Origin: Candidatus Amesbacteria bacterium
Lineage (GTDB): Bacteria > Patescibacteriota > Microgenomatia > CAZETR01 > Amesbacteraceae
Length of the DNA: 64,000 bases
Direction of reading: 5' to 3'
Assembly (NCBI GenBank): GCA_027331445.1
Contig: DAHWUD010000001.1
Span: forward strand, 43,157 to 107,156
Shown here: in pieces, positions 71-64,000 of the stretch
Layout: each line of letters starts with the position of its first letter
Numbering within the stretch: position 1 is the stretch's first letter
The notes under the pieces: model-generated
Seen by the model: the letters and a program-made list of their open reading frames with translations, nothing else
Databases searched by the model: none
Told to the model about the DNA's origin: nothing
Program-made: the position numbers and the translations under genes

Positions 71-1288
71 GTGTTTCACTTCTCCATGTTTAAAAAACTT
101 CCCCTCTATATCATTTTGGGTCTCCTCCTGCGCTTGGTTTTGATGCCCGCGACCGCCCATCCGGATCTGCGGGGTTTTAATTTGGCTGCTTACTTTATCG
201 CCCAAAAAGGTGAAGTATTTACCTTCTATGATCATATGCGCAAACTTCCGCCCACCGACCGTCTGGTCGAAATTTATATTCACGACGGCCAGGGTATTTT
301 TATTTATCCGCCCCTGGCCTATTTAACCCACGCTCTCTTCAATTTAATTCTTTATCCTCTTTATCCTCACGACACCTGGTACAAGCTCATGTACTACTAC
401 GACCAGTTTTTGGTCGACCCCGGCCGCCCCTGGCTGGTATTTCTTTTAAAAGTTCCCTACCTGATCGCTGACGGCTTCAGCTTACTCATCTTGCGCAAAA
501 TTCTGGACCCCCGCCACCGTTTCATCGGCTCCCTGATTTGGATTTTCAACCCCGTCACTCTTTATTCGGCCTACATGGTCGGCCAATTTGATATTTTTAT
601 CGCCATGTTTACCCTGCTGGCCGTTTATTTGTCGCAAAAAAAATCCTATCTTTCTCCCGTGGCATTGGCGCTGGCCGCCGGTTTCAAGCCGTTTACCTTA
701 CTGTTTTTGCCGCTGCTTCCCGGCAAAAAATGGCTCAACGTTTTACTGGGATTTCTGACCTTTTTATTCATCATCGCTCCCTACCTGCCTTCCCAGTCAT
801 TCCGCCGGGACGCTCTTTTAGCCAGCCAAAGCGACAAAATCCTTTATGCCAAAGTCCTGGTCACGGGATCGCAATATTTGTCCTGGTTTTTTGTCGGCCT
901 GTTCCTGATCTATTGGTTTAATTTATTAAAGCCAACATTTTTTTCCACTTTCGCCTGGCTGGCTGCAGCCTTCATGCCTTTTTATGTCTTCAGCGATTAT
1001 CATCCTCAGTGGTTTACCTGGATGGCTCCCATTCTCACGCTCTGCGCCGCCGTTTACACCAAATCCCGCTTACCCATCCTGGTCATGGTCGCCTGTTATT
1101 TTGTTATCGTTCTGACATTCGACAGTTCGCTCAATTTTGGTCTCTTCGGCATTAATTTTACTTTTACTGCCTGGCTGGTGCGTTATTTTCCCCCGGATGA
1201 GTTCGCCTCCCTGGTCAGAAGTCTGTTCGCCGCCACCGCCGTAGTCTTTTTGCTCCGGATTAAAAAACCGGCTACCGATGGCAAATGA
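71..1288 (+). CDS. polytopic integral membrane protein, putative GT-C fold glycosyltransferase (DUF2029/GT87-like)
   Basis: 405 aa ORF, highly hydrophobic with many predicted TM segments; motif IFIYPPLAYLTH resembles the YPP motif of DUF2029/GT87 mannosyltransferases; stop overlaps next gene start (ATGA at 1285). Confidence 0.4.
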   Translation: MFHFSMFKKLPLYIILGLLLRLVLMPATAHPDLRGFNLAAYFIAQKGEVFTFYDHMRKLPPTDRLVEIYIHDGQGIFIYPPLAYLTHALFNLILYPLYPHDTWYKLMYYYDQFLVDPGRPWLVFLLKVPYLIADGFSLLILRKILDPRHRFIGSLIWIFNPVTLYSAYMVGQFDIFIAMFTLLAVYLSQKKSYLSPVALALAAGFKPFTLLFLPLLPGKKWLNVLLGFLTFLFIIAPYLPSQSFRRDALLASQSDKILYAKVLVTGSQYLSWFFVGLFLIYWFNLLKPTFFSTFAWLAAAFMPFYVFSDYHPQWFTWMAPILTLCAAVYTKSRLPILVMVACYFVIVLTFDSSLNFGLFGINFTFTAWLVRYFPPDEFASLVRSLFAATAVVFLLRIKKPATDGK

Positions 1289-3543
1289 AGCGTCATTGGC
1301 CCATCGCCGTCATCTTAATTTTTTTCCTGATCCTCTTTAAGGACTTTTTCTTCCGCGGTTTTATTCCCGTCCCTGCCGATACTTTGGTTGGCGCTTATTA
1401 TCCCTGGCTGGATTATAAATGGGGTTACCCCGTCGGCGTCCCCGTTAAAAACCCGATTATTTCTGACGTTTTTTCTCAATTTTTCATCTGGAAACATCTT
1501 TCCACCGACCTTTTAAAGCAAGGGGTAATGCCGTTCTGGGATCCCTATTCTTTTTCCGGCACCCCGTTTTTGGCTACTTTTCATTCTACCGTGCTCTCTC
1601 CCTGGAATATTTTCTTTCTTTTGCCCAAATACTCCGGGTGGGGGATGAACATCTTCGCCTCTTTCTTATTTGCCGCCGTCTCCATGTATTTTTACTTGTC
1701 ATTATTCGTCCGCCGTCCGCTTGCCCGCCTAGCCGGATCGGTCGTTTTTGCCCTGGCCGGCCCCATGACCACCTGGGGCGAGTTCGGTACCGCGGTTTGG
1801 GCCGCCGGCTGCCTACCGTTGATTTTTTTGAGTTTGGAAATGATCCTCACTTACCGCCGGCTCCGGTTTGCTTTTCTCCTTACCGCCGCCGTAGTTTTAC
1901 TTATCCTTTCCGGTCACGCTCAGCTTCTCACCTACGCCTTTGTCCTGGCACCCTTTTATGTCCTGCTCCGTCGTCCGCCGTCCCGAACTATCTTATTAAT
2001 TGTCCTGGCTTTTGCCGCCGGAGTCATTTTGACTGCCATCCAGTTGATTCCCACCGCGGATTTTCTCACCCGTTCCATCAGAGCCGAGGAGAAATTCTCC
2101 CAGTCATATAATTACGGTCTTGTCCCCGCGTCCCAACTTGTCCGTCTGTGGATGCCCGATTTTTTTGGCCACCCGGCCACCGGCAATACCTGGGGAGGAT
2201 TCGATTATCATGAATATTCCGCCTTTCTGGGCACCCTGGTTCTCCCACTGGTTTTTGCTTCCTTTTTCCTCCCGGCCTCGTTTATCCGCAAATTTTTTTC
2301 TGTGGTTTTTATTTCCAGTCTAGTTTTGGTGGTGGACAGCCCGCTGTCCCGGTTAATTTTCAGCCTGCCTTTACCGCTTTTTACTTATTCTTATGCCAGT
2401 CGGTTATTTTTTCTGACCGGGTTATCGGCGTCGGTCCTGTGCGCCGTTTTTCTGGATTCTCCCCGCTGGCGCCCTGTCGCCGTGGCCTCGTTTTTTCTCC
2501 TGTCTTTGACCGGTCTGGCCCTGGTCCTGGCTCCTGCGTCCTTTCGCCACATCGCCCTCAAAAATTCCCTGCTTCCGGTTTTCCAGCTGCTCGTTTTAAT
2601 CGCCTTCATTTTCATCTCCCGTTTCCGGCGCTTCCTGGTCCCCGCGCTTCTGGTCTTTCTCCTGTTTGATTTAGGCCGGTATTTTGTCAAGTTCACTCCC
2701 TTTGTTCCCTCTCGCCTGGTCTTTCCGACTACCCCCGTCATCAGTTTTTTAACTGATCAACCGGGGCTATTCCGTATTGCCAGGGAGTCGGCTGCCCTCT
2801 TACCTCCCAACACCTGGGCCATGTATCACTTGGAAAACATTGAGGGCTATGACCCCCTTTCTCTCAATAGCTATAGCCATTTTTTCCATGACGTTAACCG
2901 CCAGCCGTATGCCGACACTTCGGGTCGCTTCTCCCAGCTGACCGATTTTCGCCCCCGTTTTCTCGACGCCTTGGACGTCAAATATATTCTGGAAGTGAAA
3001 CCGACCTCTGACAAAAATCTGCCCCCGATCCCGTCTGAGATCCGCAAAAATAATTATCCGCTGGTTTTTTCCGACGGCCACGTTAACGTCTACCAAAACC
3101 CCACCGCTCTGCCCCGGGCCTACTTTGTCTCCCGGGTTGTCACTGCCACCCCTGAAGCTCAGCTAGCCTCATTTCTCGATCGCTCTGATTTTGATCCGAC
3201 TAAGACCGCCATTGTTCCTGTTGCCGCCCCGGTTACGTCCGGCACGGTTTCCGATATCGTCTCCCGCCCCAATTTCTATTCTCTGACCGCCGCAGCTACC
3301 TCTTCCGGTCTCTTGGTTATGGCCAATGCCTACGACCCCGGCTGGACAGCCGCCGTCGACGGCCGCCCCATCCCGGTCTACCGCACCGATGGGGGATTAC
3401 AGTCGATAGTTTTTCCTGGCGGCACCCACCGGGTGGTTTTCACTTACCAGCCCCCTTACTTTGATCTGGCTTTCGCTATTACCCTCTCGGCCTGGGTCGG
3501 CGTAACCATCTGCTTCTTTGTTTCCCGGCCCAAAATTGTATAA
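1285..3543 (+). CDS. YfhO-family membrane protein (putative polyprenyl-P-sugar dependent glycosyltransferase)
   Basis: 752 aa; N-terminal polytopic region plus C-terminal domain with NAYDPGWTAAVDGRPIPVYRTDGGLQSIVFPGGTHRVVFTYQPPYF, matching the conserved C-terminal signature of YfhO (PF09586) as I recall it; ATGA coupling to upstream gene. Confidence 0.6.
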   Translation: MKRHWPIAVILIFFLILFKDFFFRGFIPVPADTLVGAYYPWLDYKWGYPVGVPVKNPIISDVFSQFFIWKHLSTDLLKQGVMPFWDPYSFSGTPFLATFHSTVLSPWNIFFLLPKYSGWGMNIFASFLFAAVSMYFYLSLFVRRPLARLAGSVVFALAGPMTTWGEFGTAVWAAGCLPLIFLSLEMILTYRRLRFAFLLTAAVVLLILSGHAQLLTYAFVLAPFYVLLRRPPSRTILLIVLAFAAGVILTAIQLIPTADFLTRSIRAEEKFSQSYNYGLVPASQLVRLWMPDFFGHPATGNTWGGFDYHEYSAFLGTLVLPLVFASFFLPASFIRKFFSVVFISSLVLVVDSPLSRLIFSLPLPLFTYSYASRLFFLTGLSASVLCAVFLDSPRWRPVAVASFFLLSLTGLALVLAPASFRHIALKNSLLPVFQLLVLIAFIFISRFRRFLVPALLVFLLFDLGRYFVKFTPFVPSRLVFPTTPVISFLTDQPGLFRIARESAALLPPNTWAMYHLENIEGYDPLSLNSYSHFFHDVNRQPYADTSGRFSQLTDFRPRFLDALDVKYILEVKPTSDKNLPPIPSEIRKNNYPLVFSDGHVNVYQNPTALPRAYFVSRVVTATPEAQLASFLDRSDFDPTKTAIVPVAAPVTSGTVSDIVSRPNFYSLTAAATSSGLLVMANAYDPGWTAAVDGRPIPVYRTDGGLQSIVFPGGTHRVVFTYQPPYFDLAFAITLSAWVGVTICFFVSRPKIV

Positions 3544-3553
3544 AATCACTCTG

Positions 3554-5173
3554 ATGGGGTTTTTGATTGGACTTTTGATCTTAATTTCCGCCTTTTTCCG
3601 CGTTCCCGGCCTGGCCCATTACCCCCCCGAACTCTTCGGCGACGAGGTAGACGTCGGCTACCAGGCCATGTCCCTTTTCCACACCGGGCGGGATCTGTAC
3701 AACCAGCCCCTGCCGATTTATCTCCATTCCCTTTCTGAATGGCGGGAAGGTCTGATCGTCTACCAGTTGGTTCCTACCATCGCTATCTTCGGCCATACCC
3801 CACTGGCTGTCCGACTGCCTGAAGCCCTTTTCGGCACGCTCACCCCGCTTATCTTGTTTTTGACTCTCTATTCTTTTACCAGAAATAAAACCCTGGCTTT
3901 CCTGGCATCCCTGTCCCTGGCCCTCATGCCGTGGCATATTATGTATTCCCGGATGGCCGCTTTCGGCGTCGCTACTCTCACCGACTTTCTCCTTCTGGCA
4001 GTTCTTTTTTACCGCCGCCGCCGCTTCGCTTTTTCCTTCCTGTTTTTCGCCTTAGCGATATACACATATAGTACGGCTTATATCTTTGTGCCCTTGTTTT
4101 TAATTGCTCTCTTTTTTGTTCTCAAAACCCGTCCCCGACTTTGGCATTATTTGCTGTTTGTTTTATTTGTTGCCCCCTTGATTTATGAAGTCTTCCTGGG
4201 CCCGGCCCGTCAGCGCTTTGGGGTTTTGAGTTTTACCAGCCAGTCGGAATTTGTAAACAATATTCAAACTCTACGAGTCCAGTACCCCGCTTTAATTGGT
4301 AAAAGTTTCAATAACAAATACCTCGCTTCTCTGAATTTATTTACTCAAAATTATCTCCGGGCTTTTTCTACCGACTTTCTCTTTGTCCGAGGCGATCCGG
4401 TCGTCCGCTCCAGCCTGCAGGTAGTAGGGCAGCTCCTGCCCCTCTCTGCCCCCTTCGTTTTGTTGGGCCTCTTCTTCCTGGCCCAACGTCGGCAGTGGCT
4501 GTGGCTGGTGTGGTTGGGCCTGGCTCCCATCCCCTCGGCCATGACTTATGACGGGGCTTTCCATGCCACCCGCCTGTTCCTCATGGTCCCGCCGTTAGCC
4601 GTCGCCACCGGCCTGGGGCTTAATGAATTTATCAGCTGGTTTCCCCGGGTTGCCAAACCGGCGGTCTCTCTGGTCCTCGCGGGTCTGTTTGCCGTCCATC
4701 TCTTCGGCATCGCCGGCTATTACATATATGTCTACCCCGCTGCTTCCTGGCGCTGGTGGCCCACCGGCTATGCCGCTATTATGACGGATCTGCAAAAATA
4801 CTCCCCCTCATACTCCCATGTCTTCATCAACAACACTTTCGAGCCTTCTCTAATCAGATTTTTATTTTGGACAGATTATTCCCCTGAGCAATTTCATCAG
4901 AATTTTACTCTGGATCAGCCGATTCCCGGCATTGCCCCCTTTTATACCGGGTTTAAACTGGGTGATAAATATTATTTTGGCGACTTTGCAGCTCCCGCGG
5001 GGGTTTCCTATTATGACCATCTGCTGCCGAACAGTCTTTATTTGATCAGTCAAAGGGATAACGTCCCCGGTAACTGGGACTGGAGCGTCAGTCCGCCCGC
5101 CGGTGTCCGGGTCCTGTCCACAGTCAGGACGCCTCTGGGCGATCCGGAGTTTTACCTCATCACTGCCAAATGA
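3554..5173 (+). CDS. PMT/ArnT-like GT-C glycosyltransferase, paralog 1 of 5
   Basis: ORF track 3518..5173; preferred start ATG 3554 (MGFLIGLL...) 10 nt after upstream stop; HYPPELFGDEVDVGYQAMSLF...LPIYLHS, RLPEALFG motif; many TMs; C-terminal soluble domain. Confidence 0.6.
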   Translation: MGFLIGLLILISAFFRVPGLAHYPPELFGDEVDVGYQAMSLFHTGRDLYNQPLPIYLHSLSEWREGLIVYQLVPTIAIFGHTPLAVRLPEALFGTLTPLILFLTLYSFTRNKTLAFLASLSLALMPWHIMYSRMAAFGVATLTDFLLLAVLFYRRRRFAFSFLFFALAIYTYSTAYIFVPLFLIALFFVLKTRPRLWHYLLFVLFVAPLIYEVFLGPARQRFGVLSFTSQSEFVNNIQTLRVQYPALIGKSFNNKYLASLNLFTQNYLRAFSTDFLFVRGDPVVRSSLQVVGQLLPLSAPFVLLGLFFLAQRRQWLWLVWLGLAPIPSAMTYDGAFHATRLFLMVPPLAVATGLGLNEFISWFPRVAKPAVSLVLAGLFAVHLFGIAGYYIYVYPAASWRWWPTGYAAIMTDLQKYSPSYSHVFINNTFEPSLIRFLFWTDYSPEQFHQNFTLDQPIPGIAPFYTGFKLGDKYYFGDFAAPAGVSYYDHLLPNSLYLISQRDNVPGNWDWSVSPPAGVRVLSTVRTPLGDPEFYLITAK

Positions 5174-6417
5174 AAAAAGCACTTCTGGTCCTGGTCATTT
5201 TTACGGCTTTAGCCTTTCGCATTTTCCTTTCCTTCAACAGTAAACAGGGCGACATGTACAACAATTTGGATTGGGGTCAGGGCATGTGGACCTATGGTGC
5301 GGCTCACATTTATGACGTTCCCCAACACAATTGGCCGCACAGCTGGCCCAACCAGCCGCCGGGCAGTCTGTATCTTCAGGCCGCTTCATCCTGGCTGGCT
5401 GGGACCATCGGTTACTTAATCTGGCACCCGGGCATCACCTTCAAGATTCTGCCCTCTCGTTTTATTTGGTGGTGGGATGTCTCCGGCCCGTTGATTTTAA
5501 TCAAATTGCCCTCCATTCTGGCTGATTTCGTGATCGCCTGGGTCATTTACCGTTTTGGCGTCCTGTGGCATCGGCCACGAATTGCCTTATGGGTGGCCTT
5601 TATTTACCTGTTTAATCCGGCCTTGTGGTACAACTCGGCTTTCTGGGGTCAGACCGACAGCCTCGTTGCCGCCTTCGGTCTCTTATCCGTTTTGTTTCTT
5701 CTTGAAGGCCGCCTTTTTCTTTCCCCCCTGTTTCTGGGTCTCTCCTTCATTACCAAGGGTTCCTGGCTGCCCATCGTCCCTCTCTATCTCTTTTATTGGT
5801 GGAAAAATTATCGCCCGGCCTGGCCGAAACTGCTTATTGTCCCGGCCGTTTTTTATTTGCTGGCTCTGCCGTTCCATCCGCATTTGGACCTGCCTTTCTG
5901 GTTTACCCGGCTGTACCTGACCCGGATTCTTCCCGGGGAAACCGCCTGGATTACCGTCATTGCCTTTAACTTTTGGAATCTGTTCTTCCCGGCCTCACTC
6001 ACCCCCGTGACCACACCCATCCTGGGCTTGCCCGCCCTCTACTGGGCCTGGTCCGCCGTCGCCGTATTTTTGGTCCTGATCCTGCGCTATCTGTGGCAAG
6101 ATTCCGCTCCGCATCGGTTCGTTTATGCTGTCATGCTCCTATTTTTTGCCGTCTTTCTCTTCGCCCCCAAAATGCTGCAGCGGTATTTTTATCCCGTATT
6201 TCCTCTTTTATCCCTGGTGCTGATTTTTTCCCGTCGCAAACTTTATTGGTTTATTTATGGCTTGGTTTCCTTCTGTTATCTGGCCAATCTCTATTACCAA
6301 TGGTGGGCCCCGGGGATTTTAGCCCTAGAGCGTCTCTACACCCCCCTATTTATCAAAACAATCAGTATAATCTACTTAGCCTCTTTTTCCGCCTTTTATG
6401 TCCAAAAAAACGTTTAA
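5170..6417 (+). CDS. polytopic membrane protein, putative GT-C glycosyltransferase (DUF2029/GT87-like)
   Basis: 415 aa, very hydrophobic; WPNQPPGSLYLQAASSW loop motif similar to the ORF at 71 and 45225; ATGA overlap with upstream stop. Confidence 0.4.
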   Translation: MKKALLVLVIFTALAFRIFLSFNSKQGDMYNNLDWGQGMWTYGAAHIYDVPQHNWPHSWPNQPPGSLYLQAASSWLAGTIGYLIWHPGITFKILPSRFIWWWDVSGPLILIKLPSILADFVIAWVIYRFGVLWHRPRIALWVAFIYLFNPALWYNSAFWGQTDSLVAAFGLLSVLFLLEGRLFLSPLFLGLSFITKGSWLPIVPLYLFYWWKNYRPAWPKLLIVPAVFYLLALPFHPHLDLPFWFTRLYLTRILPGETAWITVIAFNFWNLFFPASLTPVTTPILGLPALYWAWSAVAVFLVLILRYLWQDSAPHRFVYAVMLLFFAVFLFAPKMLQRYFYPVFPLLSLVLIFSRRKLYWFIYGLVSFCYLANLYYQWWAPGILALERLYTPLFIKTISIIYLASFSAFYVQKNV

Positions 6418-52839: not shown

Positions 52840-52840
52840 T

Positions 52841-53671: not shown

Positions 53672-53673
53672 AC

Positions 53674-57542: not shown

Positions 57543-58649
57543 ATGGCATATAATCAATTCATGCGCGTGGGGATTGACGTTTCACAGGCCGTTTACGGCA
57601 CCGGGGTTTCCGACTACACGCTCAATTTGGTTGAATCCTTGGGCCACATTTCCGGTCTTGACCTATCTTTATTTGCCTCCGGTTTGCGCCGGGGCCGCAC
57701 TCTGCGGCGACTTTTTCCCCACTCCCGCTTATACCCCTTTCCCCCCACCGCCCTGCATTATCTCTGGAATATCCTGCACCTGGTAAATGTCGAACACTTT
57801 ACCGGACCCATCGACGTCTTTCATGCCTCCGACTGGACCCAGCCCCCCTCTTCCCGGCCCACCGTCACCACCGTCCACGATCTGTCTCCCGTCCTGCTGC
57901 CGGGTGAAATGCGTAGCGGCGGATATCGGGATATCGTCGCCGTTCAAACTGCCCGTCTGCATTGGGCCGTCAAAGAATGTGCCAAAATTATCTGTGTATC
58001 CCGGTCCACGGCCGCCGATCTGCAGTCTGTTAGTCACGTCCCTGCCTCCCGCCTCGCCGTCATTCCCGAAGCCCTGCCTTCCCGGTTTGACCTTGACCCT
58101 CCGCCGGAACAGGTCGCAACTGTAAAAAAGAAATATCATTTGACCGACTACTTAATTTCGGTCGGCACTGCTCATCCCCGAAAAAATTTTCTCCGTCTGG
58201 CCCAATCTTTTATCAAATTTAGGTCTTTATACCGGCTTCCTGACCGACTGGTCCTCGCCGGCGCCTCGGGCTGGGGTCCCCGTCTGCCCCGTGACCCCGC
58301 CTTGGTCACCCCTGGATATTTACCCGATCCCGAATTAGCCGCCCTGGTCAAAGGTGCCGCCGCTTTTGTTTTCCCTTCACTTTATGAAGGTTTTGGTCTG
58401 CCGCTGCTGCTGGCTTGGCGCCAGCAGGTCCCCACAGTAACCTCCAACGTCTCTTCCCTACCTGAGGTCGCTGGTAAAGCCGCCGTTTTGGTCAACCCGC
58501 TTGATGAAGAAGCTATCGCGCAGGGGATTTCCCAAGCCATTAAATCCCGTGCCCGCTTAGTCGCCGCCGGAACGGCCAGGTTGTCCGAATTCAGCTGGCC
58601 CGATATCGCAGATAAAACTTACTCCGTCTACAAATCCGTATGCTTATAG
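57543..58649 (+). CDS. GT4 family glycosyltransferase, tandem paralog 1
   Basis: YEGFGLPLLLAWRQQVPTVTSNVSSLPEVAGKAAVLV. Confidence 0.65.
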   Translation: MAYNQFMRVGIDVSQAVYGTGVSDYTLNLVESLGHISGLDLSLFASGLRRGRTLRRLFPHSRLYPFPPTALHYLWNILHLVNVEHFTGPIDVFHASDWTQPPSSRPTVTTVHDLSPVLLPGEMRSGGYRDIVAVQTARLHWAVKECAKIICVSRSTAADLQSVSHVPASRLAVIPEALPSRFDLDPPPEQVATVKKKYHLTDYLISVGTAHPRKNFLRLAQSFIKFRSLYRLPDRLVLAGASGWGPRLPRDPALVTPGYLPDPELAALVKGAAAFVFPSLYEGFGLPLLLAWRQQVPTVTSNVSSLPEVAGKAAVLVNPLDEEAIAQGISQAIKSRARLVAAGTARLSEFSWPDIADKTYSVYKSVCL

Positions 58650-59734
58650 GTATCGATGCCAACGAAGCCAATCTTACCCCCAATCGGGTGGGCATAAATC
58701 AGTATGCCTACGGCGTTTTAAAAGCTTTGTGGAACCTTAAAGCTCCTCATGAATTTATTATTTATCTTAAAACTCCGCCCCTTCCCGATTTACCGCCCGC
58801 CCGTTCCGGCTGGACTTATCGGGTTCTGTCTTTTCCCAAATTTTGGACCCAGACCCGCCTGCCTTGGGATTTATACCGGCACCGTCCCCGCCCCGACGTC
58901 TTTCTCAGTCTTACCCATTACGCCCCCCGCTGGTCCCCCATGCCCATCGTGGTGGAAATTATGGATCTGGGATTTCTAAAAGACCCCGGCCAATTTACTC
59001 CCCGCGACTTTAATCAATTAAAGACCTGGACCGCCTATTCCGTATCCCGGGCCGCAAAAATAATTACCATCTCTCGGCATACCAAATCCGATATCATCAG
59101 CACCTATCACCGCTCCCCGGCAGATATCGCCGTCACTTATCCCGGATTCGATCCCCGCCTTTATTTTCCGCATCATCAGCCCGGCGTCCTGAAAAAATAT
59201 CATCTCCGTGAGCCCTATTTTTTGTTCGTCAGCAGTCTCAAGCCCAGCAAAAACCTGACGGGGCTGATTTCGGCCTTTTCCGAATTTCCGGACTCCGGCT
59301 ACTCGCTGGTCATTGTCGGCAAAAAAGCCTGGCTCTACGAAGACATTTTTGCTTTGGTGGCCAAAATGCATTTGGAAAACCGGGTCATCTTCACTGGGTT
59401 TATTCCCGAAGCTGATAAACCGGCTTTAATGTCCCGGGCGGCCGCTTTTGTCCTCCCCAGTTTTTATGAAGGATTTGGCATTCCTGTTTTGGAAGCCATG
59501 GCTTGCGGCGTTCCCGTCGTGGTTTCCCGGGTCGCCAGTCTTCCCGAAGTGGCCGGGGACGCCGGAATTTATGTCGATCCTCATTCTTCCACCTCGATTA
59601 CTGCCGGTTTAACTACCGCCGTCGGGACTGCCCGATCACAATTTGTGGCCCGGGGTCTGGCTAGAGTAAAATTATTCAGTTGGGCCAAAACCGCCCGCGT
59701 TACACTCTCGGTTTTAGAAAGCTTATCCGCCTAA
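58640..59734 (+). CDS. GT4 family glycosyltransferase, tandem paralog 2
   Basis: YEGFGIPVLEAMACGVPVVVSRVASLPEVAGDAGIYV; N-terminal GIDANEANL... collinear with 57543 product. Confidence 0.7.
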   Translation: MLIGIDANEANLTPNRVGINQYAYGVLKALWNLKAPHEFIIYLKTPPLPDLPPARSGWTYRVLSFPKFWTQTRLPWDLYRHRPRPDVFLSLTHYAPRWSPMPIVVEIMDLGFLKDPGQFTPRDFNQLKTWTAYSVSRAAKIITISRHTKSDIISTYHRSPADIAVTYPGFDPRLYFPHHQPGVLKKYHLREPYFLFVSSLKPSKNLTGLISAFSEFPDSGYSLVIVGKKAWLYEDIFALVAKMHLENRVIFTGFIPEADKPALMSRAAAFVLPSFYEGFGIPVLEAMACGVPVVVSRVASLPEVAGDAGIYVDPHSSTSITAGLTTAVGTARSQFVARGLARVKLFSWAKTARVTLSVLESLSA

Positions 59735-59737
59735 ATT

Positions 59738-60334
59738 ATGTTAACCGATCGCATGGGCCAGAAACTATCACCGTCCCAGGTGGCCAAAAAAGGCGCCAAT
59801 CGCCTGCGCAACATCTGGCTCGACCTGCTTCTTTTTAAACTCTATGTCGTGGGTTATATTCCTTTTCATTCCGTCCGCAATTTCATTTACCGTCTGGCCG
59901 GGATCCGCTTGGGAGCGGGCAGCACCCTGCACATGTGGGCCCGTTTTTTTCAGCCCCAAAACATTCACATCGGCGCCGACACCATCATCGGCGACCACGC
60001 TTTTCTCGACGGCCGGGCCCCGCTGACCATCGGCGACCACGTGGATATTGCCTCCCAGGTGTTGATTTACAATTCCGAGCACGATATCAACTCCGATGAC
60101 TTTCACGCCGTCGAGTCACCCGTCACCATCGGCGACTTTGTCTTTATCGGCCCCCGCGCTATCATTATGCCCGGCGTCACCATCAGCAGGGGAGCCATAG
60201 TTGCCGGCGGAGCCGTTGTCACCCGGGACGTCCCTGAATTCACCATCGTGGGCGGTGTTCCGGCCAAAGAGATCGGGCAGCGTCAGAACAAACATCCCCA
60301 TTACCGCTTGGGCCGGGCGCGACTGTTCCAATAA
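59738..60334 (+). CDS. hexapeptide-repeat (left-handed beta-helix) sugar O-acetyltransferase
   Basis: IGDHAFLDGRAPLTIGDHVDIASQVLIYN...VTIGDFVFIGPRAIIMPGVTISRGAIVAGGAVVTRDVPEFTIVGGVPAKEIGQR - repeated [LIV]GxxxxI hexapeptides. Confidence 0.7.
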   Translation: MLTDRMGQKLSPSQVAKKGANRLRNIWLDLLLFKLYVVGYIPFHSVRNFIYRLAGIRLGAGSTLHMWARFFQPQNIHIGADTIIGDHAFLDGRAPLTIGDHVDIASQVLIYNSEHDINSDDFHAVESPVTIGDFVFIGPRAIIMPGVTISRGAIVAGGAVVTRDVPEFTIVGGVPAKEIGQRQNKHPHYRLGRARLFQ

Positions 60335-60335
60335 T

Positions 60336-60854
60336 ATGCGCAGATTGCTGACTTTCCTGTTTATGCTGTTGATTTTGGTAACAGCCGTCTATTTGGCACT
60401 GCCGTCGCCCGCTTTTCCTCCCCCCCCGCCTAATTCCCTGCAATCGGATGAGCCGGCGGATACTGAAAGTGTTTACCGCCGGGCCTACTACACCGATTAC
60501 TCCCGGTCTGAAATTATGGCTTATTATAAAAAACAGTTTCAGTCTTCCCCCCTCGGCCGTCTTCCGCTGTTGCAGATTCGTCTCAACTATCCGCCCGAAG
60601 ATGCTTTCACTTACATCCGCGACCAGACCCAAAGCTCCTGGCTGGAGGAATTGGTCCATCCGGGCCGGGAATCAATTTTTATTAACGGATTCTATCCCAC
60701 CAAGCCGACGGAGCAGATCAATATCAACGGGGTCCACTACCTCAATAAAATTACTGTCCATTACTATCCCTCCCGGGCCGTCAGCCGCCTCACGGTCCTG
60801 GCCCTTACAGTCATCGCCGTTATCTGGTTGAAAAAGGAATATGGCCAAGTTTAA
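60336..60854 (+). CDS. hypothetical bitopic protein (N- and C-terminal TM, proline-rich linker)
   Basis: ORF track 60201..60854; preferred start ATG 60336 two nt after upstream stop; MRRLLTFLFMLLILVTAVYLALPSPAFPPPPPNS... Confidence 0.4.
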   Translation: MRRLLTFLFMLLILVTAVYLALPSPAFPPPPPNSLQSDEPADTESVYRRAYYTDYSRSEIMAYYKKQFQSSPLGRLPLLQIRLNYPPEDAFTYIRDQTQSSWLEELVHPGRESIFINGFYPTKPTEQININGVHYLNKITVHYYPSRAVSRLTVLALTVIAVIWLKKEYGQV

Positions 60855-62190
60855 CCTGATTCTTTTAGTTTTAATCCTCCTCTTTATACCTTTGTATCCC
60901 AAGTTTCCTTTGCTCGGCGTCAGCGGCACTTATGTTTCCATCCGCCTTGACGATTTGGTCGTAGCCTTGGTCTTCGCCGTCTTTGCCGCCCAGTCTCTAA
61001 AAAGGAAATTTTCCGATTTTTTCACTCCGCTGTCCCGGTCTGTCCTCCTTTATTTATTCACGGGAGTCGTCGCCACTTTTTCCGCCATCTTCGTCATCAA
61101 AAGTTCGGATCTGTCCCAGGGAGTTCTCTATACTCTCCGGCATTTCGAGTACTTTACCCTGTTTTACTGCGGCTATGCCTTCACCAAAAAAACCACCGAT
61201 CTGCACTTTATTACCCGGGTGATTCTGGTGGTCAGCGTCCTTATTTCATTTTACGGCTTGGGCCAGGCCTTTTTCAATTTTCCCGTCATCTCCACCACCA
61301 ACAGCGAATTCTCCAAAGGCCTGGCTTTGACTTTGGGGCCGGGGGCCAGAATTAACTCCACTTTTGCTGGTCAGTACGACCTGGCCGCTTATTGTATGTT
61401 TCCGTTGCTGTTGATTATTGCCCTGCTGCCCTACGCCAAACCCAAGTGGTTTTTGATTTTCGTCGGTGGCCTGCTCTATTGGACATTGCTCTTGTCCGCC
61501 TCGCGCATCACCTTTTTCAGTTTCGTGGCCTCCGCCGGTTTACTCCTCTTAGTTATCCGCCGCCGCCTCTGGCTGATCCCTCTGGGTTTTATTGCCGTCA
61601 TCGGGGTGCTTATGTCGCCCCAACTGCGCGGCCGTTATTTGGACCTCATTACTACCCGGCTTAAACTTTCATCCGCTGTCACGGTTTACGCTCAAAGCCC
61701 CTCTCTCCCTCCCGCTTCCGCTTCGGCAGTTTCTAAAAATGTCGCCACCCCGGCCGCGGCTTTAGTCCCGTCCGCCCAGCCGGAAGACCGCTCGACCGAT
61801 ATCCGTCTGCAGGTGGAATGGCCCCGGGCAATCCGGGCCTTCACCAAAAACCCGGTTTTGGGTACGGGTTTCTCTTCCGTCGGCCTGGCCGTGGATAACG
61901 ATTTGCTGCGGTCGCTGGCCGAGACCGGACTCGTCGGCACCGTCGCTTTCCTGTTGATTTTCATCCGCTTTTTCAAAAGCTCCTGGTCATATCTCATCCG
62001 CTATCCGGCAGATCACCCCACACTGGCGGCTTCTTTTGTGGCCGCCTTTTCCCTGGGCCTGTTCGGATTGATCATAAATGCCCTGTTTATAGACATTTTT
62101 ACCGCTTCCAAAATCGCTTTTACCACCTGGTGCCTGATGGGTGTGAGCGAAAAAATCATCTACTTAAGCTATGATACCGGTACAGTATGA
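60841..62190 (+). CDS. O-antigen ligase / polymerase-like membrane protein (Wzy_C family)
   Basis: 449 aa, about 10-12 TMs with a large extracytoplasmic loop containing LLLSASRITFFSF (conserved SR of Wzy_C/WaaL family). Confidence 0.45.
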   Translation: MAKFNLILLVLILLFIPLYPKFPLLGVSGTYVSIRLDDLVVALVFAVFAAQSLKRKFSDFFTPLSRSVLLYLFTGVVATFSAIFVIKSSDLSQGVLYTLRHFEYFTLFYCGYAFTKKTTDLHFITRVILVVSVLISFYGLGQAFFNFPVISTTNSEFSKGLALTLGPGARINSTFAGQYDLAAYCMFPLLLIIALLPYAKPKWFLIFVGGLLYWTLLLSASRITFFSFVASAGLLLLVIRRRLWLIPLGFIAVIGVLMSPQLRGRYLDLITTRLKLSSAVTVYAQSPSLPPASASAVSKNVATPAAALVPSAQPEDRSTDIRLQVEWPRAIRAFTKNPVLGTGFSSVGLAVDNDLLRSLAETGLVGTVAFLLIFIRFFKSSWSYLIRYPADHPTLAASFVAAFSLGLFGLIINALFIDIFTASKIAFTTWCLMGVSEKIIYLSYDTGTV

Positions 62191-63626
62191 AAATTAAAGC
62201 CCGCTACCTTATCCTGGTCGCCATCTTGATTTTGGGATTTGCCCTGCGTCTGTACAAGATTCACAACCCGGTCGCTGACTGGCATTCCTGGCGTCAGGCA
62301 GACACTTCCGCCGTCACCCGCAATTTTGTCAAATACGGCATCGATCTTCTACATCCCCGCTACGACGATTTTTCTGACGTCTCCGGCAAAGGCTTGTTCA
62401 ATCCTCACGGCTACCGGTTTGTCGAATTTCCCATCTTTAATCTGATTCATTATTTTCTCTTCCGGCTGTATCCCCGGCTGACCCTGGAAGTTTGGGGCCG
62501 GCTGACTTCGGTTTTGGCCGCCCTGGTTTCGGCCGTTTTCCTGTTCGCTTATGTTTCCCGGCGCACCCGGCCGGGTATCGGCCTGCTTTCCGCTTTCTTT
62601 TATCTCACTCTCCCGTACAACATTTATTTCACCCGCACCATCCTTCCGGATCCGTTGATGGTCACTTTCGTCCTCGCCGGGATTTATTATTTTGATAACT
62701 GGTTTACCAAATCCCGCCGTCTGGACTTGGTTTTGGGGATCGTCGCCTGCACCGCCGCCATTCTTGTAAAACCTCCCGCCGTTTTCTTTCTTCTCCCCAT
62801 TCCTTATCTGGCCTGGAAGAAATATGGCCTGAAAGCCTTTAAAAAGTTTTACCTCTACCTGGCCGGTTTTATCATCATCTTGCCGTTTATTGCCTGGCGC
62901 ATCTGGATGCTTCGCTATCCCGAAGGCATTCCGGCCAGCGGCTGGTTATTAAACGGCAATCACATCCGTTTTAAAGGCGCTTTTTTCCAATGGCTCTTCG
63001 GCCAGCGGCTGGGGGATTTGATTTTGGGCAACTGGGGCCTCATCCCTTTCGGCGCCGGCCTGATTGCCGCTATCGGCCTGGCCCCTGAATTTTTAATTTG
63101 GTTTCTTTCCTCGCTGATTTATCTCACCGTCTTTGCCACCGGCAACATTCAGCACGATTATTATCAAATTGGCATTATCCCCTCCGTGGCCATTCTTTTA
63201 GCCATCGGCACTCACTCGCTGTTTGTTTCCCGGGGATCGTTTTTCCAAAAGATTGCCCGGGGTGCGCTGGCTTTGGTTTCACTGGCTTTTATGTTCGCCT
63301 TTGGTTGGTATGCCGTGAGAGGGGACTACCAGGTCAACCATTGGGAAATTGTCCACGCCGGCCAGGCCGTCGACCATCTCGTCCCCAAAGACGCCCACGT
63401 CGTGGCTCCGTATCTGGGCGACACGGCTTTTCTTTACCAGACCAATCGCGACGGCTTTCCCTATATGGTCATGCCGATTAAGGATATGATCGACCGGTTT
63501 AACATCACTTACTATGTCTCGACCAATTTTGACAATCAGACCAATGCCATTATGAAAAAATATACCGTTACAGAGAAAACCCCCGAATTTGTCATCGTCA
63601 AGTTGGTTGAACCCAAGAGGCCCTAG
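62187..63626 (+). CDS. GT-C glycosyltransferase (ArnT/PMT_2-like)
   Basis: LRLYKIHNPVADWHSWRQADTSAVTRNF N-terminal loop after first TM, polytopic N-terminal half plus C-terminal soluble domain; ATGA coupling. Confidence 0.45.
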   Translation: MKIKARYLILVAILILGFALRLYKIHNPVADWHSWRQADTSAVTRNFVKYGIDLLHPRYDDFSDVSGKGLFNPHGYRFVEFPIFNLIHYFLFRLYPRLTLEVWGRLTSVLAALVSAVFLFAYVSRRTRPGIGLLSAFFYLTLPYNIYFTRTILPDPLMVTFVLAGIYYFDNWFTKSRRLDLVLGIVACTAAILVKPPAVFFLLPIPYLAWKKYGLKAFKKFYLYLAGFIIILPFIAWRIWMLRYPEGIPASGWLLNGNHIRFKGAFFQWLFGQRLGDLILGNWGLIPFGAGLIAAIGLAPEFLIWFLSSLIYLTVFATGNIQHDYYQIGIIPSVAILLAIGTHSLFVSRGSFFQKIARGALALVSLAFMFAFGWYAVRGDYQVNHWEIVHAGQAVDHLVPKDAHVVAPYLGDTAFLYQTNRDGFPYMVMPIKDMIDRFNITYYVSTNFDNQTNAIMKKYTVTEKTPEFVIVKLVEPKRP

Positions 63627-63629
63627 TCT

Positions 63630-64000
63630 ATGAAAATCCTCATGCTGACGCCGTATTTACCTTATCCCTTGCTGTCCGGCGGTCAAATCCGCAGTTACAA
63701 TTTAATAAAAAATCTCAGCTCCAAACACGACATAACTCTTTTTAGTCTTATCAAGGATGAATCGGAAACCCGGTACCTGCCCGAGTTGGCCAAATTTTGT
63801 ACTTCTGTCCAGGTTTTCAAGCGCACTTTTTCTCCCTGGGCCCCCCGCAATATTTTTCGGGCCGGGTTTACGTCTTACCCTTTTTTGGTTACCCGCAATT
63901 TGGTCGATCAGACCAAATCCGCCGTCGCCGCCGAGATTGCCGCCCACCACTACGATCTGATTCACGCCGAAACTTTTTACATGATGCCCAATATTCCCCA
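63630..64000 (+). CDS. GT4 family glycosyltransferase, 5' partial (runs off window end)
   Basis: Not in the ORF track because no stop is reached; ATG 63630 three nt after upstream TAG; MKILMLTPYLPYPLLSGGQIRSYNLIKNLSSKHDITLFSL is a typical GT4 N-terminal domain start. Confidence 0.5.
   Translation, partial: MKILMLTPYLPYPLLSGGQIRSYNLIKNLSSKHDITLFSLIKDESETRYLPELAKFCTSVQVFKRTFSPWAPRNIFRAGFTSYPFLVTRNLVDQTKSAVAAEIAAHHYDLIHAETFYMMPNIP

Follow-up and report, generated by a model that had tools for sequence, protein, structure and literature searches.

A GT-C-rich region of a Microgenomates genome, probably a modular set of cell-envelope glycosylation genes

The window analysed here comprises 64 kb of the genome of an uncultivated bacterium of the Microgenomates (CPR/Patescibacteria), of groundwater type and with a small genome. 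It is best read as a cell-envelope glycosylation region built of modules, and is probably no single-product operon (rough probability 0.55); the mechanism that we propose is inferred. Its devotion to glycan or glycoconjugate synthesis is supported. The initial annotation took every one of the 58 ORFs, which make 99.5% of the window coding, to be glycan-related; this stands for at least 52 of them and not for five whose function family searches could not assign (30606, 32839 on the minus strand, 33878, 44135 and 60201). Helix prediction gives 21 polytopic proteins. Family searches give 8 GT2 and 8 complete GT4 enzymes, two MOP/Wzx-type flippases, one Wzy_C protein, one hexapeptide O-acetyltransferase and a sugar-nucleotide set (WecB-like epimerase, RmlD-like reductase, two nucleotidyltransferases and a HAD enzyme), in agreement with the earlier counts (8-9 GT4, 8 GT2, two Wzx-like flippases, one Wzy/WaaL-like protein, donor-synthesis enzymes and an O-acetyltransferase), whereas Pfam finds nine methyltransferases and not ten.

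The density and diversity of GT-C-type glycosyltransferases are unusually high: 17 polytopic proteins in about seven sequence families are supported, slightly above the roughly 16 proteins in at least five families first proposed. HMM searches, the check suggested at that time, place nine of them through Pfam (PMT_2, PMT, YfhO, PTPS_related); for one the placement comes from homologous proteins (PIG-V), for four from links between family profiles, and for three from AlphaFold models of high confidence, every top PDB match of which is a GT-C enzyme. The AF2 models (pLDDT >91) cover two families without a Pfam model, and the remaining unannotated membrane proteins are tied by profile links to PMT_2-like or PIG-V-like families, the profile matches for 71, 5170 and 46456 spanning the N-terminal 200-300 residues only. 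Four DUF2029-like proteins had been claimed, but no window protein matches DUF2029/GT87, even at E<=10. The membrane protein at 44135-45235 was rejected as a GT-C, with no Pfam or NCBIfam match, hhalign values of at most 8.6% against every GT-C family tested and no link to any of them. In alignments, acidic residues are conserved near the N-terminus, past the first hydrophobic segment, in families A1 (the array paralogues; D35-E36), A2 (D42) and A4 (PIG-V-like; D62), while the conserved D131 of A3 sits deeper in the protein. GT-C enzymes carry a modified DxD motif (PMC8035078), which the A1, A2 and A4 residues match by sequence position.

The left block (module A), from before position 1 to about 21.3 kb, encodes 11 GT-C-type membrane transferases, namely five PMT_2/GT39-like array paralogues, which are ancient, two short GT-C-like proteins, and one each of YfhO, PTPS_related, PIG-V-like and a type without a Pfam model, beside one GT2, one GT4, a MOP flippase and a polyprenyl-phosphate-sugar-synthase-like GT2. 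All 19 invariant residues are kept by five of five array paralogues.

71..1288 (+): short GT-C-like membrane protein, 405 aa as longest ORF, likely start ATG at 86, ~8 TM helices; no Pfam or NCBIfam match; family profile matches the 5170 family (99.3%, E 1.6e-20); orthologue in relatives
1285..3543 (+): YfhO-family GT-C glycosyltransferase, 752 aa, ~12 TM helices including a C-terminal anchor; Pfam YfhO 6.2e-19, 68.3 bits (cut-off 28.5)
3518..5173 (+): GT-C array paralogue 1, PMT_2/GT39-like, 551 aa; PMT_2 24.9 bits, slightly below the 26.1 cut-off; BLASTP 1e-32 to 1e-48 to other array members; D-E motif in loop 1 invariant
5170..6417 (+): short GT-C-like membrane protein, 415 aa; no Pfam match; family profile links to A1 (96.6%, E 6.7e-10) and A4 (92.8%)
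6398..8032 (+): array paralogue 2, 544 aa; PMT_2 25.2 bits; D35 and E36 invariant; 1207 homologues, many with PF13231/PF02366 and named GT39 or ArnT-like
8029..9672 (+): PTPS_related-type GT-C, 547 aa, inserted in the array; Pfam PTPS_related 31.5 bits (cut-off 26.4); profile of the 45084 PMT_2 family matches this one at 90.7%
9659..11254 (+): array paralogue 3, 531 aa; weak PMT_2 and PMT matches; 32-35% identity to paralogues 2, 4 and 5, 31% to paralogue 1
11251..12840 (+): array paralogue 4, 529 aa; PMT_2 26.7 bits (over cut-off); BLASTP paralogy
12842..14464 (+): array paralogue 5, 540 aa; PMT_2 24.9 bits; BLASTP paralogy
14464..15240 (+): GT2 glycosyltransferase; Pfam Glycos_transf_2 2.6e-19
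15213..16271 (+): GT4 glycosyltransferase; Pfam Glycos_transf_1 4e-26
16268..17401 (+): PIG-V-like GT-C, 377 aa; no Pfam match of its own, but 20 of 43 homologues match PF04188 Mannosyl_trans2 (best 7.4e-15) and others PMT_2 or GT87; NCBIfam AZOBR_p60025 glycopolymer family 6.7e-9, well under its cut-off; D62-G63 invariant
17398..18648 (+): MOP/Wzx-type flippase 1; Pfam Polysacc_synt 5e-16, Polysacc_synt_3 6.4e-16
18645..19454 (+): GT2, polyprenyl-phosphate-sugar-synthase-like; Pfam GT2 6.2e-21; near full-length NCBIfam matches to PpgS (7.7e-12), PgfS and ArnC, all under equivalog cut-offs
19464..21314 (+): GT-C-fold protein, 616 aa; no Pfam model; family known only from CPR-type sources

The central block (module B, ~21.3-46.4 kb) combines sugar-nucleotide enzymes with four GT4, two GT2, seven methyltransferases, two YfhO-like 730-aa GT-Cs, noted as paralogues from the outset, and one PMT_2 GT-C.

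21275..22024 (-): SAM methyltransferase; Pfam Methyltransf_31 1.7e-23
21914..23176 (+): GT4, true start probably downstream; Pfam Glycos_transf_1 3.4e-29
23173..24291 (+): UDP-GlcNAc 2-epimerase-like (WecB-like); Pfam Epimerase_2 2e-42; NCBIfam wecB 2e-46, under its cut-off
24278..25345 (+): GT2 with two C-terminal TM helices (286-343); Pfam GT2 8e-19
25358..26197 (-): FkbM-type methyltransferase; Pfam Methyltransf_21 1.7e-15
26257..28467 (+): 730-aa-class GT-C, 736 aa, YfhO-like architecture; no Pfam model
28494..29390 (+): RmlD-like sugar-nucleotide reductase; Pfam RmlD_sub_bind 5.9e-56; NCBIfam rmlD 5.8e-53, under its cut-off
29387..30592 (+): GT4; Pfam Glycos_transf_1 7.7e-41
30606..31373 (+): soluble protein, 255 aa; no Pfam, NCBIfam or PDB match; 26% identical homologue in locus L031 has Pfam GDPD
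31363..32082 (-): sugar-phosphate nucleotidyltransferase; Pfam NTP_transferase 9e-12
32079..32870 (-): its paralogue (40% identity); Pfam NTP_transferase 6.3e-13
32839..33162 (-): small ORF, possible cupin, uncertain gene; Pfam Cupin_2 only at 0.0029
33168..33827 (-): HAD-family enzyme, beta-phosphoglucomutase-like; Pfam HAD_2 1.9e-34; NCBIfam PGMB family 1.2e-27, under its cut-off
33878..35125 (+): soluble protein, 415 aa, directly upstream of the second 730-aa GT-C; no family match; both genes of this pair also in L031 (42% and 60% identity)
35137..37311 (+): second 730-aa-class GT-C, 724 aa, in alignment A2; 33.5% identity to 26257-28467 over 713 aa, E 8e-130
37304..38137 (+): GT2; Pfam GT2 8.1e-20
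38140..38835 (+): SAM methyltransferase; Pfam Methyltransf_25 1.5e-17
38832..39533 (+): SAM methyltransferase; Pfam Methyltransf_11 1.2e-15
39374..40606 (+): GT4, true start probably downstream; Pfam Glycos_transf_1 5.3e-24
40369..41535 (+): SAM methyltransferase, true start probably downstream; Pfam Methyltransf_11 8.6e-17
41538..42656 (+): GT4; Pfam Glyco_trans_1_4 4e-24
42653..43444 (+): FkbM-type methyltransferase; Pfam Methyltransf_21 7.2e-17
43410..44126 (+): SAM methyltransferase; Pfam Methyltransf_23 3.8e-24
44135..45235 (+): membrane protein with N-terminal anchor, ~190-aa external domain and four C-terminal TM helices; not GT-C-like
45084..46571 (+): PMT_2-type GT-C, true start probably ~36 codons downstream; Pfam PMT_2 7.5e-11, 42.9 bits; hhalign 94.8% to A1

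The right block (module C, ~46.4 kb to beyond 64 kb) is a Wzx/Wzy-type module, with a second flippase, a second polyprenyl-phosphate-sugar-synthase-like GT2, an FAD oxidoreductase, a Wzy_C protein and an O-acetyltransferase, together with further GT2 and GT4 enzymes, two methyltransferases and three GT-Cs.

46456..47967 (+): GT-C-like membrane protein, true start probably downstream, ~10 TM helices; Pfam PMT_2 only at 0.75; family profile 95.6% to A1, E 1.2e-8
47991..48755 (+): SAM methyltransferase; Pfam Methyltransf_11 1.7e-24
48738..49445 (-): GT2, polyprenyl-phosphate-sugar-synthase-like; Pfam GT2 1.4e-31; NCBIfam AglJ 6.3e-35, ArnC-type 1.6e-21, PpgS 2.6e-21 (these three near full-length) and PgfS 1.3e-17, all under equivalog cut-offs
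49476..50753 (+): FAD-dependent oxidoreductase, amine-oxidase fold; Pfam Amino_oxidase 7.4e-29; NCBIfam PRK07233 1.1e-124, over its cut-off
50738..51997 (+): MOP/Wzx-type flippase 2; Pfam Polysacc_synt 7.1e-19; weak TuaB and MOP flippase NCBIfam matches
51994..52839 (+): GT2; Pfam GT2 1.8e-9
52616..53671 (+): GT2, paralogue of 51994 (40% identity); Pfam GT2 1.6e-10
53485..54411 (+): SAM methyltransferase; Pfam Methyltransf_11 3.2e-22
54415..55416 (+): GT4; Pfam Glycos_transf_1 9.8e-24
55422..56168 (+): GT2; Pfam GT2 2.1e-12
56141..57532 (+): PMT_2-type GT-C, 463 aa; Pfam PMT_2 9.1e-7, 29.7 bits; hhalign 99.2% to A1
57543..58649 (+): GT4; Pfam Glyco_trans_1_4 1.2e-16
58640..59734 (+): GT4; Pfam Glycos_transf_1 7.6e-33
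59738..60334 (+): hexapeptide O-acetyltransferase (WcaF-like); Pfam Hexapep 1e-14; NCBIfam WcaF family 5.4e-27, under its cut-off
60201..60854 (+): protein with N- and C-terminal TM helices; no family match
60841..62190 (+): Wzy_C-domain protein (polymerase, ligase or O-oligosaccharyltransferase class); Pfam Wzy_C 3.1e-12, 47 bits (cut-off 31.7)
62187..63626 (+): PMT_2/PMT-type GT-C, 479 aa; Pfam PMT_2 1.1e-11, PMT 1.6e-8
63630..64000 (+): 5' part of a further gene, GT4-like by eye only; 123 aa without a Pfam match

The initial annotation described one single-strand, operon-like unit for one product, chained by ATGA/TAATG overlaps. ATGA overlaps are present at 13 of 46 plus/plus junctions and no intergenic gap exceeds 59 nt, but seven genes in four islands (21275-22024, 25358-26197, 31363-33827 and 48738-49445) lie on the minus strand. 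Tight gene packing is normal in CPR genomes, and therefore adjacency alone is no proof that the modules cooperate. One operon-like unit with one product is not supported. The region looks modular, its three parts having separate histories and differing in GC, conservation and gene content: GC is 40-44% at ~21-46 kb against 50-57% in the flanks, and the closest long relative shares 57-79% amino-acid identity with the left block, conserved gene for gene, 30-41% with most central genes, and again 52-64% on the right. The neighbourhood conservation sought earlier holds for the left block, whose GT-C array has a one-to-one counterpart even in relatives with as little as 40-50% identity, but not for the central block, where 25 ORFs in the window stand against 8 genes in ~7.7 kb in one relative and gene content differs in L007, L030 and L031. 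A chimeric assembly is unlikely: on an independent relative's contig the left block is followed, after a shorter variable region, by the opening genes of the right block (homologues of 46456 through minus-strand 48738), and proteins identical to those at 6 kb, 19 kb and 26 kb of the window each list 168,596 bp as the longest contig, consistent with one shared contig.

Across seven loci (L003, L013, L017, L018, L021, L022 and L030), nearly every array member has one clearly best window paralogue, by margins of 71-571 bits and usually in the same order as in the window. The array is non-redundant and conserved, which suggests that its members carry out separate steps outside the cytoplasm in a fixed series. 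The locus was thought to continue past both edges; on the left this is confirmed, four further GT genes and one 537-aa gene lying upstream in relatives. On the right, the partial gene at 63630 has no Pfam match and its assignment as a GT4 is not confirmed; by eye, its N-terminal sequence (MKILMLTPYLPYP..SGG) resembles GT4 N-termini. Comparable GT-C arrays are also found in other genomes of the Microgenomates, some of which have been public for years. Such uncharacterised arrays are common throughout this lineage, the window being one example. The earlier statement that no characterised system is equivalent agrees with our literature searches, which found no paper describing Microgenomates GT-C arrays, but the arrangement is not peculiar to this locus.

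A role in protein O-glycosylation would suit the gene set just as well. Protein-modifying members occur among the PMT-type, the YfhO/PgfM-type and the Wzy_C/PglL-type enzymes alike; sequence alone does not discriminate between a polysaccharide and protein glycosylation as the product. The pathway is incomplete within the window, because no initiating phosphoglycosyltransferase, Wzz protein or GtrA family match is found among its Pfam results.

For the modular envelope-glycosylation reading, the soluble GT2 and GT4 enzymes, methyltransferases and acetyltransferase would act at the inner membrane face to make decorated, polyprenyl-linked oligosaccharides, which the MOP flippases would export and the Wzy_C protein would polymerise or ligate. 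In parallel, the DPM1/ArnC/PpgS-like GT2 enzymes may make polyprenyl-phosphate monosaccharides, donors with which outer-face GT-Cs would extend, branch or decorate, stepwise, one or more envelope glycopolymers. The genes are most naturally read as assembling glycan in part on the outer side of the membrane, where the initial annotation placed most of the assembly; to that extent its proposal is supported, like that of glycan dedication. The array would work much as the mycobacterial Emb/Aft enzymes or the lumenal ALG enzymes do.

The 64-kb window is 99.5% coding and contains 58 open reading frames (ORFs, named here by their start coordinates), according to a six-frame ORF listing and Pfam scans. 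The initial annotation described a single-strand locus, which does not hold: 51 genes are plus-strand and seven minus-strand, the latter forming four islands.

Minus-strand islands of the window
21275-22024, minus strand, methyltransferase (island 1)
25358-26197, minus strand, FkbM methyltransferase (island 2)
31363-33827, minus strand, two nucleotidyltransferases, a small cupin-like ORF and a HAD enzyme (island 3)
48738-49445, minus strand, GT2 (island 4)

ATGA overlaps occur at 13 plus/plus junctions and the largest intergenic gap is 59 nt; the chained gene packing reported earlier is present, but the four islands interrupt it. The Pfam tally of cytoplasmic glycosyltransferases comprises eight GT2 and eight complete GT4 proteins, in agreement with the counts first proposed (8 and 8-9), along with nine methyltransferases (seven class-I SAM and two FkbM) in place of the ten expected. 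The two Wzx-like flippases, the Wzy-like protein and the O-acetyltransferase were all recovered, as two MOP/Polysacc_synt flippases, one Wzy_C protein (47 bits vs a cut-off of 31.7) and one hexapeptide acetyltransferase. A WecB-like epimerase, an RmlD-like reductase and an FAD oxidoreductase are also encoded. Every ORF with an assignable function is glycan-related, but the claim that every ORF is so goes too far, since family searches assigned no function to five of them: 30606, 32839(-), 33878, 44135 and 60201. Among the 58 ORFs there is no Pfam match for an initiating phosphoglycosyltransferase (Bac_transf, MraY/WecA-type) or for a Wzz chain-length regulator, both of which might lie outside the window; the GtrA family is absent from the Pfam results of the window, and no candidate acceptor protein is encoded within it.

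Such density, together with the glycan-related character of all assignable genes, would suit a super-operon transcribed as one unit, with all 58 genes contributing to a single elaborate glycan, and promoter-like and terminator-like sites over 18-38 kb are no commoner than in shuffled sequence. However, compact packing is general in small CPR genomes, the plus-strand run is broken by the minus-strand islands, and the window holds two flippases and two candidate lipid-sugar synthases.

Three genes of the window have neighbourhoods worth recording. The FAD-dependent oxidoreductase (49476-50753, plus strand; NCBIfam PRK07233, 1.1e-124, above cut-off) is divergent from the GT2 of island 4, which resembles polyprenyl-phosphate-sugar synthases, with 30 nt between them, and immediately precedes the second flippase; speculatively, it might modify a lipid-linked sugar, loosely as DprE1 does. 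The 255-aa protein at 30606-31373 has a 26% identical counterpart in a related locus, L031 (17077-17832), that carries Pfam GDPD (glycerophosphodiester phosphodiesterase) and adjoins two alcohol-dehydrogenase-like genes and two nucleotidyltransferases, a neighbourhood suggestive of a polyol-phosphate (teichoic-acid-like) constituent in certain variants of the cassette. The soluble 415-aa protein at 33878-35125 lies immediately upstream of the second 730-aa GT-C protein (35137-37311), and the pair recurs in L031 (19291-22082) at 42% and 60% identity; the 415-aa protein may be a dedicated partner of this GT-C.

A hydropathy scan identified 21 polytopic proteins, namely the two flippases, the Wzy_C protein and 18 others. 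Pfam, paralogy, profile-profile comparison and AlphaFold2 (AF2) models together support 17 of these 18 as GT-C-type proteins in about seven sequence families, each protein having 7-12 hydrophobic segments in this crude scan. The density asserted by the initial annotation (about 16 GT-C-like proteins) is thus borne out, while its family labels differ: at a relaxed Pfam threshold (E<=10), no window protein matches DUF2029/GT87, to which four had been ascribed, and none itself matches PIG-V. In nine of the 18, a Pfam match passes or nearly passes its cut-off; these and the remaining array member are as follows.

Pfam evidence for polytopic proteins other than the flippases and the Wzy_C protein
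1285-3543, YfhO, 68.3 bits vs a gathering score of 28.5
8029 (start), PTPS_related match
11251 (array, plus strand), 45084, 56141 and 62187 (starts), PMT_2/PMT above cut-off
3518, 6398 and 12842 (starts; array, plus strand), PMT_2 within 1.2 bits of cut-off (24.9-25.2 vs 26.1)
9659 (start; array, plus strand), weak PMT_2/PMT match well below cut-off, but 31-35% identical over its full length to 3518, 6398, 11251 and 12842

The other assignments come from profile and fold comparison. The families of 71 and 5170 are homologous at 99.3% in profile-profile comparison, and that of 5170 is linked to the family of the five-paralogue PMT_2/GT39-like array at 96.6% and to the PIG-V-like family of 16268 at 92.8%; 46456 is linked to the array family at 95.6%. 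The 377-aa protein 16268 has 7656 related cluster representatives (50% clustering, E<=0.001), and among 43 sampled relatives 20 match PF04188 (PIG-V mannosyltransferase) and others match PMT_2, GT87 or ALG10. The 616-aa protein 19464 shows no profile link to the array family (1.9%) and thus forms a separate GT-C lineage; it has neither an STT3 Pfam match nor a WWD/WWE motif and so lacks the WWDYG-type oligosaccharyltransferase signature. The two 730-aa paralogues (26257 and 35137) do not match YfhO in Pfam and reach only 80% against the window YfhO protein in hhalign; their resemblance to YfhO is one of architecture. PDB sequence searches with single proteins and with profiles of the array and 730-aa families gave no meaningful match, and the link to solved GT-C structures came from fold comparison alone. 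The two AF2 models, representing the families that lack a Pfam model (616-aa and 730-aa), are transmembrane helix bundles that fold confidently as GT-C; their best structural matches include Pmt4, PglB, STT3 and AglB, with AftD, AftA and AftB also among the top. The aligned families have conserved acidic residues that may represent the modified DxD motif of an extracytoplasmic loop near the N-terminus: D35-E36 is invariant in the array family, D62 in the PIG-V-like family and D131 in the 616-aa family, while D42 is nearly invariant in the 730-aa class.

The absence of Pfam matches for several membrane proteins could be taken to mean that these are transporters or degenerate non-catalytic paralogues. 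Transporters, however, appear only far down the fold-match lists, and the catalytic-type acidic residues are invariant in all array paralogues.

Two candidates were rejected. The protein at 44135 has no profile-profile link to any GT-C family and is left unassigned; encoded at 44135-45235, it consists of an N-terminal anchor, an external domain and four C-terminal helices without a family match, and over 149 aa it shares 40% identity with a segment of a 942-aa ORF in the related locus L030 (16063-18891). The ArnT/GT83 label that JGI gives to homologues was also dropped, the test for ArnT models and a lipid A acceptor having come out negative.

Further features of these families were observed. 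The PIG-V-like protein (16268-17401) and many of its relatives escape the Pfam model despite the very large size of the family, and the NCBIfam model 'AZOBR_p60025 cell surface glycopolymer formation' matches 16268 only in part. Among homologues of 26257 (P0159, P0163, P0164, P0174, P0176 and P0181), some reach 1200-1270 aa and contain a CBM_4_9 carbohydrate-binding module, and the related long homologue P0179 is named 'O-antigen polymerase' by NCBI; these features suggest that enzymes of the 730-aa family bind glycan acceptors. DNA repeats in the window are confined to two sets: one (6481-6555, 9742-9816, 11328-11402 and 12913-12987) encodes the conserved loop-1 D-E motif of four array paralogues, and the other (27301-27353 and 36169-36221) encodes a FPGFNAYREASKF-type motif common to both 730-aa paralogues; the repeat segments are 60-77% identical as DNA, vs about 30% overall protein identity.

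The five array paralogues are mutually 28-35% identical, and their alignment with 35 homologues contains 19 invariant residues, among them D35-E36 right after the first transmembrane segment. More than 1200 array homologues occur in the protein database, many with PF13231/PF02366 and named 'glycosyltransferase family 39' or 'ArnT-like'. The best named homologues, at 45-54% identity, come from Amesbacteria, Woesebacteria and other Microgenomates. The initial annotation had proposed checking neighbourhood conservation in related genomes, and such conservation is evident. The left block is kept gene for gene in L003/L007, L004 and L008 at 57-79% amino-acid identity, in the order (lengths in aa, or families) 403 / YfhO 754 / 537 / 415 / 544 / 547 / 531 / 529 / 540 / GT2 / GT4 / 375 / Wzx / GT2 / 598. 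Upstream of it, these relatives carry a GT4 gene, three GT2 genes and a 537-aa gene, which indicates that the locus extends past the left edge of the window as first claimed; on the right, the partial ORF at 63630 cited for a similar extension has no Pfam match, for GT4 or otherwise.

In seven loci (L003, L013, L017, L018, L021, L022 and L030), whose members are 39-69% identical to those of the window, nearly every array member best matches a single window paralogue by a margin of 71-571 bits, and six of the seven follow the window in order. These one-to-one matches indicate that the five-fold duplication is old and that every copy has been kept, which argues for distinct, non-redundant roles of the array members. 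More distant Microgenomates, including the complete Beckwithbacteria genome CP011210 (L001), a Gottesmanbacteria MAG (L002) and L029, carry arrays of 4-6 PMT_2-like paralogues without one-to-one orthology, and in L001 and L029 a GT2 resembling polyprenyl-phosphate-sugar synthases adjoins the array. A scan of GTDB representatives recovered distant relatives only, in Beckwithbacteria and Gottesmanbacteria.

Both composition and conservation divide the window into a left block (to about 21.3 kb), a centre (about 21.3-46.4 kb) and a right module (from about 46.4 kb). GC content is 48-55% in the first 20 kb, drops to 40-44% between 22 and 46 kb and is 49-57% from 46 to 64 kb. Against L007, the closest long relative, identity starts at 57-79%, is down to 30-41% for most of the genes between 19464 and 45084 (inclusive) and recovers to 52% at 46456 and 64% at 47991; the centre of L007 has 8 genes (about 7.7 kb) vs 25 ORFs (about 25 kb) in the window. 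After the 616-aa gene, L030 carries a methyltransferase, an RmlD-like gene, split transketolase-like genes and genes for 930-aa and 770-aa proteins, while L031 has a cassette partly syntenic with that of the window (GT4, WecB, GT2, a 692-aa GT-C, GT4, a GDPD-like gene, two nucleotidyltransferases, a 438-aa protein and a 707-aa GT-C). These differences in central content between L007, L030 and L031 identify the centre as a mosaic, exchangeable cassette between conserved flanks, a pattern familiar, by analogy, from O-antigen and capsule loci. With the centre swapped in relatives, and with GC content and conservation both shifting sharply at about 21 and 46 kb, the claim of one operon-like unit with one product is not sustained, and co-transcription of all 58 genes toward a single glycan is unlikely. 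On the plus strand, AT skew is -0.33 to -0.41 and GC skew about -0.13 to -0.23 (1-20000 and 46000-58000); the skew tracks the stretches that encode membrane proteins and is probably due to Phe/Leu-rich codons, not to a strand bias of replication.

The same abrupt GC changes might betray a chimeric assembly, which the initial annotation had named as a potential flaw. An independent assembly (logan SRR21359456_0), however, runs from the left block into the start of the right block with the order preserved. Proteins identical to those of the window occur in NCBI, ENA and Logan, and the ones at 6, 19 and 26 kb are each recorded with a longest contig of 168,596 bp and a contig count of 2. Scans for tRNAs, Rfam families and IS-type repeats found none at the module borders. 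The GC shift is therefore treated as biology rather than mis-assembly, and an artefact of either kind, in assembly or in protein assignment, is largely refuted and highly improbable.

Multi-component transmembrane glycosylation combines a GT-A enzyme that makes a C55-P sugar, a GtrA-/Wzx-type flippase (Wzx-type flippases being accepted in such systems) and a GT-C enzyme with a modified DxD loop (PMC8035078), and YfhO and PMT_2 are typical GT-C families of the scheme (PMC8035078; see also PMC11127046). Judged by sequence, the candidate synthases, MOP flippases and GT-Cs of the window appear to match it. The GT2 48738(-) matches the NCBIfam models AglJ (6e-35), ArnC-type (1.6e-21), PpgS (2.6e-21) and PgfS (1.3e-17), and the GT2 18645 matches PpgS (7.7e-12), all below equivalog cut-offs, with the best matches near full-length; both are similar to enzymes that attach a monosaccharide to polyprenyl phosphate and are candidate donor makers. 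In our preferred reading, to which we assign a probability of about 0.55, the conserved GT-C block would carry out a fixed series of extracytoplasmic glycosyl transfers that extend an envelope glycopolymer outside the membrane, as the mycobacterial Emb/Aft/Mpt enzymes do, whereas the variable cassette and right module would supply strain-specific methylated and acetylated units. The GT2 and GT4 enzymes, methyltransferases, acetyltransferase and sugar-nucleotide enzymes would assemble lipid-linked oligosaccharides in the cytoplasm, which would then be exported and polymerised or ligated by the Wzy_C protein. A more specific version, which we put forward tentatively, regards the conserved 11-gene GT-C block as a Microgenomates-specific assembly line that turns polyprenyl-phosphate monosaccharides into a complex envelope glycopolymer, almost wholly at the outer face of the membrane and decorated by the cassette, and the 616-aa and 730-aa classes as new GT-C families. 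If true, this would give bacteria a parallel to the lumenal ALG pathway, or to arabinan synthesis in mycobacteria, that arose independently in ultra-small and probably symbiotic cells, with the swappable cassette providing strain-specific decoration for host or phage interactions.

The main rival is general protein O-glycosylation, in which secreted or surface proteins (S-layer proteins, pilins, disordered Ser/Thr-rich regions) would receive sugars directly from polyprenyl-phosphate donors through the array and YfhO-like enzymes, with the Wzy_C protein serving as a PglL/PilO-type O-oligosaccharyltransferase. Pfam PMT and PMT_2 are protein O-mannosyltransferase families, NCBI names homologues GT39, the YfhO gene weakly matches PgfM1 and the GT2s match PgfS of the streptococcal Pgf protein-glycosylation system, and Pmt4, PglB, STT3 and AglB are among the best structural matches; Wzy_C-type O-oligosaccharyltransferases likewise belong to families represented in the window. 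The number of conserved, non-redundant GT-Cs (five to eleven) nevertheless exceeds, to our knowledge, that of any bacterial protein O-glycosylation system. Streptococcal GT-C enzymes are reported to glycosylate Ser/Thr-rich regions (PMC12041528). For most PMT_2 members of Gram-positive bacteria, however, the substrates are teichoic acids and wall polysaccharides (PMC8035078, Table 2). The 616-aa protein lacks oligosaccharyltransferase hallmarks, no candidate acceptor is at hand in the window, and 16 cytoplasmic glycosyltransferases with nine methyltransferases point to a large glycan. On balance, protein O-glycosylation is possible but doubtful, and extension of an envelope glycopolymer remains our preferred reading.

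Every component of the locus belongs to a known kind. What is unusual is the density (17 GT-Cs per 64 kb, 11 of them in one contiguous conserved block), its occurrence in a lineage of very small genomes, the layout of a conserved GT-C core with a swappable cassette, and the presence of two predicted GT-C families that lack a Pfam model, are seen only in CPR-type sources and are recognised by structure prediction alone. Searches of the open literature on glycosyltransferases of CPR/Patescibacteria/Microgenomates yielded no description of such arrays, only passing notes of multiple dolichol-phosphate mannosyltransferase-like genes in Peregrinibacteria and Saccharibacteria; the earlier statement that no comparable characterised system is known stands to that extent, but the arrays are lineage-wide and visible in public genomes such as CP011210, making the window one instance of a general feature. 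The gene-content feature is real and striking, and the proposed mechanism is plausible. CPR genomes are about 1 Mb in size with little biosynthetic capacity, and here more than 64 kb is spent on surface glycans, including an 11 GT-C block kept across lineages diverged to 40-50% identity. This investment suggests that an envelope glycan or glycoprotein coat is central to the lifestyle, for example in host attachment, phage evasion or envelope integrity. The conserved core, the variable cassette and the two families without Pfam models are targets for the study of Microgenomates envelope chemistry and provide a natural setting for asking how many successive steps of glycan assembly can move outside the cytoplasm; in practice, the array could serve as a lineage marker and the cassette as a strain-typing region.

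Compared with known systems, the window resembles Wzx/Wzy O-antigen, capsule and secondary-wall-polysaccharide loci in its MOP flippases, Wzy_C protein, GT2/GT4 sets, sugar-nucleotide genes, acetyl- and methyltransferases and low-GC variable centre between conserved flanks, but it encodes no initiating phosphoglycosyltransferase or chain-length regulator and its GT-C content is without parallel in described loci of this type. We know of no LPS in CPR bacteria. PMT/GT39 enzymes and the streptococcal Pgf system (PgfS/PgfM1/PgfM2) share with it the PMT/PMT_2 matches, the loop-1 D-E motif of the array and NCBIfam similarity to PgfS and PgfM1 at scores far below equivalog cut-offs; unlike them, the window proteins have no MIR domain, and their paralogue number is far above that of known bacterial systems. 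The multi-component systems (CsbB/GtcA/YfhO, GtrA/B/C, ArnC/ArnT, GacI/GacL and the GT136 pentofuranose system; PMC8035078; PMC11127046) likewise have a GT2 resembling polyprenyl-phosphate-sugar synthases, a flippase (Wzx/MOP in the window) and polytopic GT-Cs, YfhO and PMT_2 being families listed there; the conserved acidic residues of the window proteins may correspond to the modified DxD loop motif of those systems. Whereas those systems pair each GT2 with a single GT-C and attach just one side-chain sugar, the window has two candidate synthases for 17 GT-Cs, no GtrA-type flippase and 11 GT-Cs in a conserved contiguous block. Mycobacterial and corynebacterial arabinogalactan and LAM synthesis (EmbA/B/C, AftA-D, PimE and Mpt enzymes) offers a further likeness, with many distinct, partly clustered GT-Cs acting serially outside the membrane to build a wall polymer from polyprenyl-phosphate monosaccharides; AftD, AftA and AftB are among the top structural matches of the window proteins, and the 730-aa proteins, some of whose homologues carry CBM_4_9, resemble AftD in having a large external domain after the transmembrane core. 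The window differs in lacking Arabinose_trans and Emb Pfam matches and a UbiA/DprE-type donor pathway, in having more GT-Cs per cluster than mycobacteria, where about 6 lie in the embCAB-aftA-aftB region, and in its host, a CPR bacterium whose genome is about 1 Mb in size.
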